Assembly (NCBI GenBank): GCA_965198225.1
Contig: CBDAOY010000007.1
Coordinates: 672,001-736,000, forward strand
DNA: 64,000 nucleotides
From: Terriglobia bacterium
Lineage (GTDB): Bacteria > Acidobacteriota > Terriglobia > 20CM-2-55-15
Direction of reading: 5' to 3'
How positions within the stretch are numbered: position 1 is the stretch's first letter; every line of letters starts with the position of its first letter. The position numbers and the translations under genes were made by a program. Shown piece after piece: positions 55,573 to 61,017 of the stretch. Under the pieces are notes generated by a model. It was not told the origin of the DNA. It worked only from the letters and a program-made list of their open reading frames with translations, and did no database searches.

Positions 55573-58008
55573 TCAGTTCCGCCGGTCTCCCGCCGGCTGT
55601 GCGTCCTTTACGAACCGCTCGAACCACGACATCATTTCATAGAGCGTGTGTTCGACCGACTCCTTCGCTGCGTAACCGTGGGATTCGTTCGGCAGTGTGA
55701 CGAGTCGAGCCGTTGCGCCGTGTCCCGTCAGGGCGTGATACATCCGGTCCGACTGGACGGGGAAGGTGCCGGAGTTGTTGTCCGCCTCTCCGTGCGTCAG
55801 CAGGATCGGCTCGTTGACCTTGTCGGAGTGCATGAAGGGTGAGACCTTGAAGTACAGCTCCGGAGCTTCCCAGAACGTCCGCTGTTCGCTCTGGAACCCG
55901 AAAGGAGTCAGCGTGCGGTTGTAGGCTCCGCTGCGAGCGATGCCGGCCCGAAACAGGTCGGAGTGCGCGAGCAGGTTCGCCGTCATGAAAGCTCCGTACG
56001 AGTGTCCGCCCACCCCGACGCGATTGCCGTCGGTGACTCCCAGCTCCACGGCCTTGTCGATCGCCGCCCTCGCGCTCATCACGATCTGATCGACCATCGT
56101 GTCGTTGACGGTCATGGGGTCGCCGATCACGGGCATGGTCGCGCCGTCCAGGAGCGCGTAGCCGTTGAGGACGAAAAAGAGCTGCGACGCTCCACGGATC
56201 GTCGTGAAGCGCTCGGTCGATCCAGAAACCTGGCCTGCTGTGGACGGATCGTTGTACTCCCGCGGATACGCCCAGACCACGGTCGGCAGACGGGTACCCT
56301 CTTCGTAGTCTGCGGGCAGATAGAGGGTAAAAGAGAGATCCACGCCGTCTTCGCGCTCGTACTTGATGAGTCGTTTCGAGATCCCACGGAGCTGCGGCGT
56401 GGGATCGGCGAAGGCGGTCAACCCGGCGATGCTGCCCCCTCCGGACAAATCCCGGATGCGGTAGTTCGGGGGCTCCGTCTTGGTCTCACGTCGCGTGACC
56501 CATCGGTCGCCGGAATCGCCGAGCGGGCTCACAATGGCTTCGTAGGTCCCGGTCTCGGCCCTGAAGAGGCGCTCCGAGGCGAGTGTCGCAAGGTTCAGGC
56601 GATCCAGGAATGGGTAGTCGCCGTTGGGTGAGGAGCCGTTGCCGGCGAGATAGATCCAGTCGCCGTTCTGCATCACGGCACGGTGGCCGTTGGGCAGGGT
56701 CGCGGAAACAGGCCGCCCCGGATCGTTGTAGCGGTCCTGCGCGCTCATGTCCCAGATGAGCTTTGGGTCGGCATCCGAAGCGACCAGGAACGTTCGGTTC
56801 CACCGCCGGATGCGATCGAACTCGGTAATCAACGCCCGTCCGTCGGCGAGCCATTGCAGTCCGCGGTTCCGTTCTTCGGTCCGGAAGATCTCCCGCGGCG
56901 CCTGATCGAACGGCGCGGCGAGCGCCATCAGCTTGTCGCGGTGTTCGACTTCGGCGGCGGGGTCTCCACCGTCCAGAGCTTCCGCCCAAGTCAGCGTTGC
57001 TGGTTCGGTCGGGATCCAGCCATAGCTTCGGGGATCGGTCGGTACGCCCCCGATCGGCACGTTCTCCTGCAGCGAGATCCTCGCGACAGTGTGCTCGACG
57101 ACGGCCGAACGATCCCAGATCTCAACCATTCGTGGGAACGAACTGTGCCTGAACAGGTAGGAGTAGGGCTTCTGCAGGCGGACGACGAGGAGGTGGTTGC
57201 CGTCAGGGGAGATCGACAGCGACTGGAAGAGTCCGGGCTCGCCGAAGTTCGTCACCCGGTCGTTTGCAGTGTCCACCAACGCGAGTTGAGCCGTGGCGTG
57301 GTAGTCGAACAGGGCGATATCGTGCGGCGTTTCCAGCAGATCCTGGTATGTCCGAACCGGTCCGGACCGTCCGGAGGTTTCCTGGACATTTGGTCCGACA
57401 GGTACGGTGGGTGCCTGGGGCGGTTCACCCCGGCCCGCCGGAAGTCGCTGGATCAGAAGCGTTCGGCTGTCGGGCATCCATCGGATCGCGGTGCCGTACG
57501 CCGCGTTGAGTACGACGCCGTCGATCCTGTGTGCGCTGCCGCCCACGCCGCCGACCCACAGATCGATACCTGAGTCCCGGGTGTTCGTGAACGCGAACCT
57601 TTGGCCGTCGGGACTCCACTGGGGAGAACCCAGCTGTGCCTCGAGCGGCAGGTCGATCTGCATCTCGTTCCCGTCCGGCATCGCCTTCAACGCGTATCCG
57701 ATCGAGTAGCGGGGTCGGCTGGGTCCGTTGGTCAGCGGGTCGATACGCAGCCCGGCGATCCGTAGCATCGGTTGGGAGAAATCCTCGATCGACGGGTATC
57801 CCGGCGGCTGGGAGAGAATCATGTGGCTTCCGCCCGGATTGATACTCACCTGGGGCGTCGGCAGGGCGTCCAGGACGTCCTGGATTGCCTGTGGCGGTTT
57901 CCTGTAAGGCTCCTGGCCGGCCCCTGCAGTGGCCGACGCCAGCAGCAGGGCCGTCACTACGGCGGCCGTCGGGAGCCCCCGAGGGAAGTCGAAAGATCGT
58001 GTTTTCAT
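55573..58008 (-). CDS. S9 family serine peptidase (glutamyl endopeptidase-like), secreted
   Basis: Beta-propeller plus GGHSYGAFM, HGEADNNSG, ESHGY. Start is 58008 or 58086. Confidence 0.92.
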   Translation of the reverse strand: MKTRSFDFPRGLPTAAVVTALLLASATAGAGQEPYRKPPQAIQDVLDALPTPQVSINPGGSHMILSQPPGYPSIEDFSQPMLRIAGLRIDPLTNGPSRPRYSIGYALKAMPDGNEMQIDLPLEAQLGSPQWSPDGQRFAFTNTRDSGIDLWVGGVGGSAHRIDGVVLNAAYGTAIRWMPDSRTLLIQRLPAGRGEPPQAPTVPVGPNVQETSGRSGPVRTYQDLLETPHDIALFDYHATAQLALVDTANDRVTNFGEPGLFQSLSISPDGNHLLVVRLQKPYSYLFRHSSFPRMVEIWDRSAVVEHTVARISLQENVPIGGVPTDPRSYGWIPTEPATLTWAEALDGGDPAAEVEHRDKLMALAAPFDQAPREIFRTEERNRGLQWLADGRALITEFDRIRRWNRTFLVASDADPKLIWDMSAQDRYNDPGRPVSATLPNGHRAVMQNGDWIYLAGNGSSPNGDYPFLDRLNLATLASERLFRAETGTYEAIVSPLGDSGDRWVTRRETKTEPPNYRIRDLSGGGSIAGLTAFADPTPQLRGISKRLIKYEREDGVDLSFTLYLPADYEEGTRLPTVVWAYPREYNDPSTAGQVSGSTERFTTIRGASQLFFVLNGYALLDGATMPVIGDPMTVNDTMVDQIVMSARAAIDKAVELGVTDGNRVGVGGHSYGAFMTANLLAHSDLFRAGIARSGAYNRTLTPFGFQSEQRTFWEAPELYFKVSPFMHSDKVNEPILLTHGEADNNSGTFPVQSDRMYHALTGHGATARLVTLPNESHGYAAKESVEHTLYEMMSWFERFVKDAQPAGDRRN

Positions 58009-58094
58009 GACCGTGGTCTCCTCTTCGCCGAAAGTTGGATCAGGCTTCTGTCGGGATCTGGCGATTTTAGTACCCGAGTGCGCCATTTCGAAAG

Positions 58095-58553
58095 CTATTC
58101 CTCACTGATGTCGGCGGAGTACTCCAACTCGATTCCGCGTTTGACGCTGAGAGCTGCGGGACAGGCACTTTCGACGATGTCGATCAATTTCCGGGCATCT
58201 TCCTCTCGTCCCCGGGGCACTTTGATGTTGTAATTGACCCGGATTCGCGTGACGACCATCCTGCCGTCAACTTCTTCGATGTCTCCTTCGACGTCGGAGT
58301 GCAGTTTCTCGGGGTATGATGGGATTCCTCGTGCTTCCAGGGCGCCGCCCAGGGTGCCGGTCAGTCAACCGGCGACGGCGGCCACGAGGTAATCGAGAGT
58401 TGCGGGGATGTCTTCGTCGGGTTCCAGCTTGTAGAAGTGCTTGATGCCTCCGTGGACGCCGAAACGCACGGGTTCGGGGAAGTCTTCGATGTATGCGAGC
58501 CGCAGCGGCCGCTTATCCTGGTAGATCTTAACCTTCGAGGTGTGCACTAACAT
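58095..58553 (-). CDS. OsmC-like protein, 152 aa, probable selenoprotein (UGA at codon 63)
   Basis: GGAGGAGG RBS; ...DYLVAAVAG-UGA-LTGTLGGALEARGI...ESACPAALSV...ISEE-TAG. Frame stays open 89 codons past the UGA. Confidence 0.85.
58336..58364 (-). promoter_or_regulatory. Candidate bacterial SECIS element
   Basis: After the UGA: CUGACCGGCAC-CCU-GGGC-GGC-GCCC-UGG. The G-initiated apical loop lies 18 nt from the UGA. Confidence 0.55.
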
Positions 58554-58677
58554 GGTTCCTCCTCCAGAGAAGGGTTAACGTAAAACTATCCTATAATTTA
58601 GATCGGTTGTTTCTACACAAGATAATCCGTTGTTCCGATCCCATGACGGGGGACGCTGCCACAGGAGGTGTTGCTGC

Positions 58678-61017
58678 GTGACGAGCACACCTGAGAACGA
58701 GCTGGAGAGGGCCCGTCAGGTGTGCCGCACCGAGGATCAGCCGGCCGACCGCTACCTGGAAGCCGTCGACAGGATCGTTGCCATCTGCCTCCAATCTCCC
58801 GAGCTGGTCGGAGAGGAGACATTGTCTTCGCTGGGCGGCCTTCTCCGCCGCGAAGAACTGCCCAAGTCCGTCATCGACCACACCCTGATTGCGATAGCCG
58901 TCGTTGCCTATAGCGTTCCGGCCCTGCTTTCGGGTGCGCTCGAGTTTGTTCGGGACTTTTTGAAAGACCCTCCCGCTGAAGTCGCGAGCGACCATCTTGC
59001 ATCCTCTCTGTTCCTCTGCCTGGTCAAGATAGATCGCACTTCGTCGATGGGCGCTGTGTTGGATGTCCTGCAGGCTCCCTCCTTGTCCGGACCTGTGCGC
59101 GGTTCACTGCTGGCGGCGCTACCGCAGGTTGCGGAATGGAATGACACAGATTCGGCAGGAGAGCAGCTCCTCCAGCTTCTGGACACCCCGGGGCTCTCCG
59201 TGCAGAGGCGAACCGTCGGCCCGATCCTGGAGCGGCTCTGCTTGAGACACCCTGAGGAGGTGACGCCGCAACTGCTGGAGCTTCTGGCGTCATCCAAGCT
59301 CGTTCGCGATTTCCACTACCTCCGGTCCTGGCTGGTGGGGAGAAAGTCTCTGTCTGAAGAGACCCGCGGGAAGCTCGGAAGTGGCGCCGCAGTTTCTGCG
59401 GAAATTCGGTCGGCGGTCCGCAGGCGCCTCGGGGACGGGGCGTGTCGAGTTTTGATCGTCCACAACATCAACGACTCCCGGTCGAGCGAAATCGTCCGCG
59501 TCACCCCACTCGCCGACGCGCTGCTGGCGCTCAATCCCCGGTTGGAAATCACGCTGGTGACCCGGCGTCGGTATCTCTATGACCATCCACGAGTGAAGGT
59601 CATTTCAGTGGAAAATGCCGGCGCCGTCTACGAGTGCCTGGAGTCGCGGTTGCAGGCCGTGATCGATTTCTACGAAGCGGGTAACAAGCGTCAGAACTAC
59701 CGCCCGGAGCTGGAGCTGGCCGTTCAGGAGCACGTTTCGAAGGAGCGTCCGTTATTCATATCCGCGGGCAAGGGCACGGACCAGTTCACGTTCAGCCGCC
59801 TGATGTTGGGCCGGATGGACTATGCGGGTGATCTCGATCTGGACGTTCAGCGGGTTCCGAACGTATACGATCCGAGCTACCGCCTTGCGGCGGTGCTCGG
59901 AATACCGTTGAGGATGGGAGAAGAACAGCCCGATGACGGATCTATCCTGGTGGCCTCGCCCTCGGATGAAGCCCGGGCAGAGTGGACACGCCTCACCGAG
60001 CGTTGCGGCGCAGGGGGGGACCGGCCGATCGCCCTGGTGAATCCTTTCGGCGAGTCCGACCTGTTGAGGGGTTTCACCCCCGAAACGGCGCCTTCCCTCG
60101 CGGCTGAACTCGAAGTTCTCGTGGGCGAAGGGTATTCCGTCGTTATTCTGCCGAACGGCTTGAGCTGGGGTACCGGGGCGGAAGCCGTCAACGCGGTTCG
60201 ATCCGAGTTCCAGCCGTTCATCACGACAGCCCCGGATCTGGTCCTGAGCGGTGCGGATTCAGATGCTTCGAAGAAACTCCCGTTGGATCGTGCCGATCAG
60301 ATTTTGCGCTGGTTCAAGTATTTTTCGAGCTATGCGGATCTGGTCGTAACAGTCGAGGGCTGGCTCATGCACCTGGCATACCAGATGGGGAGGCCCTACA
60401 GCCTGTGGATGATGCCATACTCGGGACAGCTCGAATGGCACCCTTTCGGCGCGAGCGCCAGACAGCACATCGTTGCAGGAATGAGCTCGCACACTTCCCC
60501 GGACACCGGGTCGGAGCTTCTTGGTGAATCCGACGAGCCGCCCCAGCCGCGCTATCCCCGGAAGGAATTGTTGCTGTACCTGCTCGAGGGCCTCGGGAAG
60601 ATGGAGGGATCGTTTGCCGCCGGTCCTCTCCTGCTTGCCGCTCGCAGCGTGGATCGACATGTTCGCGCCGCCGCGATCGCAGCTCTCGCTCGTTTTGAGA
60701 GCGAGGAAACCAGAAAGGTGGCTCTGGGCGCTCTGCGGGACCCCTCCTGGGAGGTGCGGGCCGCAGCCGCCGAAGCCCTGCTTTACTCTCGCCGTGATCT
60801 GCGGTGGGAGTTGGACGAAGGCTATGAACGCGTCCTGCGATGCCACTCGTTGATCGGTAAGGGGCGGTGGGCTGACGTACTCGCGATCGGCAAGGCGGCG
60901 ATGGCTCCACTGATGCTGGCGATGAAGGATGAGGATCCAGCGATGCGTCGAGAGGCCAAAGACTGGTTTACCAGACTGACCAGTGTGAAAAAGGAAAAGG
61001 AAAGTCCCTGGCAGTGA
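58678..61017 (+). CDS. Helical-repeat / GT9 glycosyltransferase-like / HEAT repeat fusion protein
   Basis: GGAGG before the GTG at 58678. GT9-like VLIVHN...TPLADALL...EITLVT and ADLVVTVEG..MHLA..MGRP. HEAT repeats VRAAAIAAL and DPSWEVRAAAAEAL. Confidence 0.65.
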   Translation: MTSTPENELERARQVCRTEDQPADRYLEAVDRIVAICLQSPELVGEETLSSLGGLLRREELPKSVIDHTLIAIAVVAYSVPALLSGALEFVRDFLKDPPAEVASDHLASSLFLCLVKIDRTSSMGAVLDVLQAPSLSGPVRGSLLAALPQVAEWNDTDSAGEQLLQLLDTPGLSVQRRTVGPILERLCLRHPEEVTPQLLELLASSKLVRDFHYLRSWLVGRKSLSEETRGKLGSGAAVSAEIRSAVRRRLGDGACRVLIVHNINDSRSSEIVRVTPLADALLALNPRLEITLVTRRRYLYDHPRVKVISVENAGAVYECLESRLQAVIDFYEAGNKRQNYRPELELAVQEHVSKERPLFISAGKGTDQFTFSRLMLGRMDYAGDLDLDVQRVPNVYDPSYRLAAVLGIPLRMGEEQPDDGSILVASPSDEARAEWTRLTERCGAGGDRPIALVNPFGESDLLRGFTPETAPSLAAELEVLVGEGYSVVILPNGLSWGTGAEAVNAVRSEFQPFITTAPDLVLSGADSDASKKLPLDRADQILRWFKYFSSYADLVVTVEGWLMHLAYQMGRPYSLWMMPYSGQLEWHPFGASARQHIVAGMSSHTSPDTGSELLGESDEPPQPRYPRKELLLYLLEGLGKMEGSFAAGPLLLAARSVDRHVRAAAIAALARFESEETRKVALGALRDPSWEVRAAAAEALLYSRRDLRWELDEGYERVLRCHSLIGKGRWADVLAIGKAAMAPLMLAMKDEDPAMRREAKDWFTRLTSVKKEKESPWQ

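Follow-up and report, generated by a model that had tools for sequence, protein, structure and literature searches.

The DNA analysed here, referred to as the window, is a stretch of 64,000 nucleotides (positions 672,001 to 736,000 of contig CBDAOY010000007.1) from the genome of a Terriglobia bacterium, and the subject of this work is a gene of the OsmC type on its minus strand whose reading frame contains an in-frame TGA codon. The features of the locus are collected in Table 1. Read directly from the window, an ATG at 58553-58551 opens the OsmC-type frame, and the open reading frame (ORF) recognized under translation table 11 is stopped after 62 codons by the TGA at 58367-58365. Past this codon, 89 further codons follow in frame up to a TAG at 58097-58095, giving a read-through product of 152 residues. 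A preliminary description, made from the letters of the window alone, had pointed to this continuation, to a ribosome-binding site ahead of the ATG, and to the way in which the longer frame closes the gap to the following gene, and direct reading agreed with it on the three counts: GGAGGAGG was read at 58565-58558, and the extended frame fills the gap to the S9 peptidase gene, because the longest start of that ORF, the next one downstream, lies at 58086. The Pfam OsmC model (PF02566) matches residues 49-145 of the product with 57.3 bits (cut-off 27.5; E 2.2e-15), and a search of the genome with this model locates the gene at C7:730119-730409 with one TGA inside. Since the match runs across the TGA, the coding continuation beyond it is more than chance. 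The locus very probably holds one intact gene for a 152-residue selenoprotein of the OsmC fold, in which the UGA is read as selenocysteine (Sec) at residue 63.

Table 1. Features of the OsmC-type locus, in coordinates of the window
Feature	Position	Strand	Remarks
Predicted complete selenoprotein gene, OsmC fold, Sec at residue 63	58095..58553	minus	152 codons plus TAG; Pfam OsmC match across the TGA; closest solved structures: T. thermophilus and E. coli OsmC
Shine-Dalgarno-like GGAGGAGG	58558..58565	minus	4 nt ahead of the ATG; read directly
In-frame UGA, proposed selenocysteine (residue 63)	58365..58367	minus	column of the first (peroxidatic) Cys of OsmC; TGA in 81/81 genes; 77 Cys-form loci have TGC or TGT; same column as the AAHAxC cysteine of 1ukk/1qwi
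Cys131 in C-P motif	58161..58163	minus	column of the second (resolving) Cys; CP in 107/107 TGA-form genes; aligns with the GCPVS cysteine of 1ukk/1qwi
SECIS-like hairpin, clade of the window	58337..58353	minus	stem of 6 pairs with one U-U mismatch; GGC at 58346-58344 forms the apical loop; inside the 10-codon invariant run
Run of ten codons immediately following the UGA, all synonymous sites conserved	58335..58364	minus	overlapping RNA constraint; 5 clade genes
7-pair hairpin holding the UGA in its loop	58356..58373	minus	from a fold of the region

Conservation of the TGA codon and the selenocysteine machinery

The relatives of the gene were collected by a locus scan of one genome per species with an 18-row alignment, a 47-row alignment being unusable for lack of a sufficiently conserved stretch, and the best 80 loci of the 440 relatives found were taken. 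All 80 have TGA at the Sec column (76 were caught by the search pattern and the remaining four were read separately), which makes 81 of 81 with the window. The loci are titled Solibacteraceae, Sulfopaludibacter, Bryobacterales, and other Acidobacteriota, as well as Methylomirabilota/Rokubacteria/NC10, Nitrospinota, Armatimonadota, KSB1, and others, and the nearest relative of the window gene, 87% identical, comes from an uncultured Solibacteraceae bacterium. A sample of 401 genomes from the phylum of the window contained 65 genomes with a match at E <= 1e-10, and exactly one TGA was present in 66 of their 69 matches; the three without a stop are a full-length match at 33% identity, a fragment covering residues 84-152, and a match to residues 59-151 inside a frame of 718 codons. 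Among the 29 relatives' loci fetched from this search, the TGA column was checked in 26, the other three having failed to fit the pattern, one of them cut by a contig end. The coding sequence is also conserved after the TGA: the cysteine of the CP motif is kept in all 107 TGA-form genes, and exactly 89 residues follow the TGA in 64 of them.

The preliminary description had proposed a search for homologues with Cys or TGA at this column and conserved coding downstream, and both forms were found. Full-length relatives of about 156 residues with Cys at the Sec column are present in the protein database, and none of them exceeds 55% identity to the window protein. A metagenome scan with an alignment of Cys forms gave 80 loci, of which 79 contained the motif: 61 with TGC, 16 with TGT, and two false pattern hits. 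On a FastTree phylogeny of 220 distinct rows (105 Sec and 115 Cys, with the Sec/Cys column masked), the Sec/Cys state needs five changes, at least two of them forced by well-supported branches, against a mean of 73 after shuffling; judged from this tree, the family behaves as selenoprotein families usually do, with a few switches between Sec and Cys. Two database entries, P0002 and P0004, have the look of intact non-Sec homologues. They are the closest "full-length" entries (66% and 65% identical, respectively) and carry W at the Sec column; the TGA was therefore translated by another table, and the entries probably come from a pipeline using a table in which TGA encodes Trp.

A sequencing error at the TGA, a possibility already considered in the preliminary description, is practically excluded. 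The whole gene is covered with zero differing letters by contigs of three runs, each from a different study; two of these contigs may be the source of the window DNA. A contig of 253 nt from a metatranscriptomic library is likewise identical over 58320-58572, a span that starts in the leader and runs past the TGA. The contigs do not show the level of expression.

The genome of the window (6.4 Mb in 9 contigs, 97% complete) encodes the four components whose presence the preliminary description had left to be checked: selB (387 bits, cut-off 242), selA (538 bits), selD (373 bits), and the product of selC, tRNA-Sec, found with 72.9 bits on RF01852 and by ARAGORN as tRNA-SeC with anticodon TCA. 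The selD gene (G000:C9:419380-420303, locus L010) itself contains an in-frame TGA, in the N-terminal stretch S-A-G-U-A-G-K (G-x-x-K motif), at what we take to be the position of the catalytic Cys/Sec of SelD. Alongside this TGA-form selD, the OsmC-type gene adds to the evidence for a rich selenoproteome in the acidobacterial genome. A selD with TGA also occurs in two of four other acidobacterial genomes checked. Within the window, TGA serves as an ordinary stop as well, ending 11 of the 29 long non-overlapping frames. Among the 65 genomes of the phylum sample that carry the OsmC-type gene, selB exceeds its cut-off in 61 (two tables combined). This co-occurrence is a weak test because selB is common across the phylum (296 of 401 genomes, a tally that includes three unpublished genomes, G024, G049, and G152, none of which carries the OsmC-type gene).

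RNA structure after the UGA codon

Counting the U of the UGA as position 1, RNA positions 15-21 of the window gene pair with positions 25-31 (58353-58337 of the window) through six pairs and a U-U mismatch; the loop GGC occupies +22 to +24, and 18 nt separate it from the UGA. The bacterial selenocysteine insertion sequence (SECIS) model of Zhang and Gladyshev reportedly calls for a stem-loop 16-37 nt past the UGA whose first or second loop position is G, and the window hairpin, at +15 to +31, fits these rules. The SECIS-like hairpin of the preliminary description was thus recovered with its loop and distance, although its strength, taken on its own, is within chance. Support for this hairpin is drawn from comparison with relatives and not from its own stability. 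In the clade of the window (the window gene, L022, L023, L024, and L079), all ten codons directly after the UGA are codon-identical in the five genes, compared with 7 of the 64 other columns with a conserved, degenerate amino acid (Fisher one-sided p 2.7e-8), and this invariant run covers the hairpin exactly.

Across the family, a hairpin counted as SECIS-type when its loop began 16-37 nt from the U, one of the first two loop bases was G, and the stem had four pairs or more. The best such hairpin in 102 distinct TGA-form genes averages -12.05 kcal/mol, compared with -8.06 kcal/mol for synonymous permutations (mean z -1.18), the permutation p being <=0.05 in 21% and <=0.2 in 64% of the genes; at other anchors in the same genes the mean is -3.99 kcal/mol. 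No hairpin excess was seen in 66 distinct Cys-form rows of equal GC, which still include up to two false pattern hits (-7.89 versus -7.63, z -0.08). The commonest helix pairs positions 23-29 with 33-39 around a loop GGA, and it covaries. For instance, pair 26-36 is C-G in 61 rows and U-A in 10, and pair 27-35 is G-C in 64 rows and A-U in 13. Altogether, both sides are altered in 36 cells; shuffles give 11.6, and none of 500 scores as high. The helix is 80.7% paired where slid controls reach at most 62.6%. In the covarying changes, Ala gives way to Val on one side of the pair, and the codon on the other side changes silently. As relatedness inflates such counts, this covariation is support and not proof.

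The SECIS-type hairpin appears in at least three or four registers across clades (L022-L134, +14 to +39), with loops at +22-24 (GGC), +24-26 (GGC), +21-26, and +30-32 (GGA), and the peptide stays almost unchanged. The Bryobacterales and Rokubacteria types use further registers. In Rokubacteria-type genes, the rare Leu codon CUA is used twice, producing a CGCUAGC/GCUAGCG stem. A "proximal" helix of the Rokubacteria type, 14-20 with 27-33, finds no support in covariation when the whole alignment is used: it is 71.0% paired versus 69.6%, and its covariation score was reached by 130 of 500 shuffles. A second structure, GCCGGUU/GACCGGC, encloses the UGA itself in a loop of 4 nt under seven pairs. 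A stem of at least five pairs around the codon is present in 48% of 91 distinct TGA forms versus 7% of 60 Cys forms. This stem may follow merely from the Ala-Gly ... Thr-Gly codons, or it may be the lower part of the recoding signal.

Several observations weigh against the reading of the UGA as selenocysteine, or at least against the hairpin of the window as its signal. The 86-nt fold of the window has a z of 0.28, and 113 of 200 shuffles fold as well. The best SECIS-type hairpin of the window reaches -9.0 kcal/mol versus -6.9 kcal/mol for synonymous-codon permutations, but 26% of the permutations equal it, and 8% of other anchor positions within the gene give an equally good one; any such gene folds after the UGA because the peptide L-T-G-T-L-G-G-A-L-E-A-R uses GC-rich, self-complementary codons. 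The minimum free energy (MFE) of the 45 nt after the UGA is weakly below that of synonymous permutations family-wide (mean z -0.47, with controls of -0.23 upstream of the UGA and 0.0 further downstream; the window gene itself has z +0.16), and because this plain shift is weak, the hairpin-specific measure and the Cys-form control were used. In addition, the commonest helix is broken in the clade of the window, where three of its seven pairs cannot form in the window gene, and the hairpin of the window lies in a different register, 8 nt upstream. The region 58200-58450 gave no relevant Rfam match at E <= 10, with only a chance hit to Rothia-sucC at E 2. The contig from the RNA library may derive from DNA in that library. 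Finally, selB was not found in four carriers of the gene, G055, G118, G215, and G225 (75-95% complete), which gave only EF-Tu-like matches; all four have selA (458-548 bits) and selD (286-354 bits).

Fold, proposed chemistry and alternative explanations

The AlphaFold2 model of the 152-residue protein has a mean predicted local distance difference test (pLDDT) score of 80.3 and a predicted template modelling (pTM) score of 0.70, with residues 33-49 below a pLDDT of 50. Foldseek found 61 PDB matches to this model at E <= 0.001, about the first 30 of which are OsmC, OsmC-like, and Ohr chains; the OsmC chains of E. coli and T. thermophilus lead, ahead of OsmC-like proteins and Ohr. When the PDB was searched with a subfamily profile, T. 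thermophilus OsmC (1ukk, E 2.1e-07) and E. coli OsmC (1qwi, 1nye) were matched. OsmC proper is the closest by both routes (profile E 2.1e-07 to 1.7e-05; Foldseek E 5e-08 and TM about 0.57-0.6), and both cysteine columns align; the window protein differs from it in having Sec for the first Cys, in an identity of 17-19% over the Foldseek alignments, in a score on TIGR03562 of 25 bits (cut-off 85.8), and in its N-terminal 48 residues, which include a subfamily-specific G-V-H-G-G motif. Ohr (PDB 1n2f, 1zb9, 6ecy) shares the fold and the two-cysteine layout but is a weaker match than OsmC (Foldseek E about 1e-06 to 1e-05; 12 bits on TIGR03561, cut-off 88.9).

In OsmC and Ohr proteins, the first cysteine is peroxidatic and the second resolving, and in the peroxidases an Arg and a Glu activate the peroxidatic Cys. 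The preliminary description had placed the UGA at the first of these cysteines and had recognized the second in a CP motif, and the profile alignments with 1ukk and 1qwi bear out both assignments: Sec63 falls on the first OsmC cysteine, and Cys131, part of an A-C-P motif 68 residues after the UGA codon, falls on the cysteine of G-C-P-V-S. Almost certainly, the UGA encodes selenocysteine at the reactive site. Codon 63 would be decoded by tRNA-Sec together with SelB, which would be recruited by the mRNA hairpin just downstream of the UGA, within the coding sequence. In the protein, Sec63 would correspond to the peroxidatic cysteine of OsmC, and Cys131 to its resolving cysteine; the selenolate would reduce a hydroperoxide, a selenenylsulfide would form with Cys131, and a cellular thiol reductant would presumably recycle the enzyme. 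A selenolate peroxidase mechanism of this kind is the best supported because OsmC and Ohr are the closest proteins by sequence and structure and both cysteine columns are aligned, and we regard peroxidase activity as somewhat probable.

It is unlikely, although a serious consideration, that the selenoprotein is not a hydroperoxide reductase and that the pair of Sec63 and Cys131 has some other redox or carrier task, for example exchanging selenenylsulfides with a partner protein or handling sulfur/selenium, as the preliminary description had suggested. The protein scores below all four curated NCBIfam models of the peroxiredoxin type (12-25 bits versus cut-offs of 86-166), as such a role would allow. 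The N-terminal Arg, residue 30 in the window protein, is replaced by T, E, or Y in relatives and lies in a region with pLDDT below 50; because of this lack of conservation and the low-confidence region, the peroxidase chemistry is not secured. Several invariant residues of the subfamily, H34 (of G-V-H-G-G), D54 (nine residues before Sec), E73, R75, E89, and E93, have no assigned role, and to our knowledge many members of the OsmC superfamily have no demonstrated peroxidase activity. The neighbourhood lends the peroxidase no help either: over 107 loci, no neighbouring gene is common to more than 12, several of such clusters overlapping the gene itself, and with no conserved neighbours there is no operon clue to function. 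The same survey of 107 loci found no conserved partner gene, which speaks against the exchange or carrier role. Two further points tell against this role: the proteins closest in sequence and structure, OsmC and Ohr, are peroxidases that align in both cysteine columns, and in other peroxidase families Sec is usually found at a peroxidatic position.

As to the codon itself, it is very improbable that the UGA is read through as something other than Sec, that is, as Trp, Cys, or Gly by a near-cognate or suppressor tRNA or under a changed code. The entries P0002 and P0004, with their W, would agree with such a reading, were it not for their probable origin in a pipeline with another table. The long frames of the window that end in TGA argue against a global reassignment, and the complete Sec system of the genome, its Sec-type selD, the presence of selB, or of selA and selD, in 65 of 65 carriers, and a hairpin excess specific to the TGA forms all favour Sec; in addition, Trp at the catalytic Cys column would kill the redox site.

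Still less probable is a pair of small genes, of 62 and about 89 residues, coupled stop to start and assembling into a split OsmC fold. The codon after the TGA is ATG in 49 of the 107 relatives, which could serve such a second gene and is the reason why gene callers emit C-terminal proteins of 86-92 residues. However, the window and 58 of the 107 genes have CTN (Leu) in that place, which does not normally serve as a start; the stop is always TGA and never TAA or TAG, and it stands exactly at the catalytic Cys column, where the unsplit Cys forms have TGC or TGT. The catalytic residue would then be absent from both halves.

That the TGA is a genuine stop, whether the gene is a pseudogene, has recently acquired a nonsense mutation, or contains an error of sequencing or assembly, with a 62-residue fragment or nothing being made, is extremely improbable: table 11 does end the ORF at 62 residues and public annotation gives relatives as records of 61-89 residues, but the same TGA stands in 81 of 81 genes of several phyla with conserved coding after it and CP in 107 of 107, the contigs of the three runs (two possibly the source DNA) are identical, and conservation of synonymous sites after the TGA is not expected of a dead gene.

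Described OsmC-like selenoproteins, annotation and neighbouring genes

A selenoprotein family named "OsmC-like protein" was described from the Sargasso Sea by Zhang, Fomenko and Gladyshev (2005), with three sequences, COG1765, and the motif UxxT. In the accessible parts of later publications it recurs, always as a single UxxT entry: the Olavius symbiont paper of 2007, the Global Ocean Sampling (GOS) study of 2008 (five sequences), and reviews of 2022 and 2026. The portion of the 2005 supplement that could be consulted gives a protein of 137 residues with Sec at residue 40 and U-L-L-T in two of the three entries. This family probably corresponds to the NCBIfam model NF041052, "OsmC-related (seleno)protein".

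On the available part of that record, the 2005 family resembles the window protein in belonging to PF02566, in having Sec at the first-cysteine column where a long helix starts, in the hydrophobic A-x-L-x-Y-[IL]-V-A stretch before Sec, in a second cysteine near the C-terminus, and in a SECIS within the ORF right after the UGA. The differences, as far as the same entries allow, are that the window protein reads U-L-T-G-T (L or M after U in relatives) with Sec at residue 63, whereas the 2005 family reads U-L-L-T with Sec at residue 40 and is shorter, and that only scattered residues are common outside the helix before Sec when the two are compared by eye. The 2005 entries accessible come from AT-rich marine DNA, and the window subfamily from GC-rich metagenome-assembled genomes (MAGs) of soil, groundwater, and similar sources. 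The UxxT motif is not present in the window protein, and in the rows of relatives shown the third residue after U is Gly. On NF041052, the window protein reaches 21 bits where the cut-off is 95, and 14 of 18 subfamily members match the model at E <= 0.01 (best E-value 9.7e-08). A second OsmC-domain gene in the genome (G000:C6:850750-851109; L102/L103), which has no stop codon, scores 51 bits on this model, above the window gene and below the cut-off.

Replacement of the reactive Cys by Sec in an OsmC-like protein has been known since 2005 and is not a new principle. The preliminary description had likewise regarded OsmC-like selenoproteins as known in general, which holds, and had left the status of this subfamily to a search; the curated model NF041052 does not capture it. 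From that score and the comparison by eye, the subfamily appears to lie outside the curated model and the selenoprotein catalogues, as far as the accessible parts of the latter go. We tentatively suggest, at somewhat less than even confidence, that it forms a distinct OsmC subfamily absent from these catalogues, of about 152 residues, with the motifs G-V-H-G-G and T-L-D-x(8)-U-[LM]-T-G-T, with Sec as the rule, spread over at least six phyla of soil, groundwater, and marine origin, with a SECIS hairpin in at least three registers over the same peptide, and annotated as fragments of 61-92 residues. If the subfamily is indeed distinct and nearly obligate for Sec, its chemistry would need selenium and not merely tolerate it.

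The consequences for annotation are more immediate. The NCBI records of relatives are "OsmC family protein" fragments of 61-89 residues, and the protein database holds many pieces of 86-92 residues that start right after the TGA, together with N-terminal pieces that end in ...V-A-G. What is recorded as two fragments, or as one fragment and nothing, would be corrected to a single selenoprotein gene, and the same split is found in NCBI records for Acidobacteriota, NC10, Tectomicrobia, and Armatimonadota. A curated model of the subfamily would recover the gene in hundreds of genomes, given the 440 relatives from one scan. The largest cluster in the neighbourhood survey, present at 63 of the 107 loci, is an ORF of about 180 residues lying antisense over the OsmC-type gene itself; it is most likely a GC-rich shadow frame, able to outcompete the split sense ORFs in gene calling.

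With regard to the adjacent genes, a scan for promoters and terminators gave nothing useful for the OsmC-type gene on the minus strand upstream of 58553. Upstream on the opposite strand, a divergent ORF of 795 residues (58630-61017, plus) has HEAT repeats near its C-terminus as its only Pfam matches, which leaves the first 650 residues without an assignment. The downstream gene (55573-58086, minus) contains PD40/beta-propeller and Peptidase_S9 domains and belongs to the S9 prolyl-oligopeptidase family. Its longest ORF starts 8 nt past the OsmC stop; a better start lies near 58010, with GAGGAG and an N-terminus resembling a signal peptide, and a promoter-like site is located at 58091-58064, between the stop of the OsmC-type gene and this better start.

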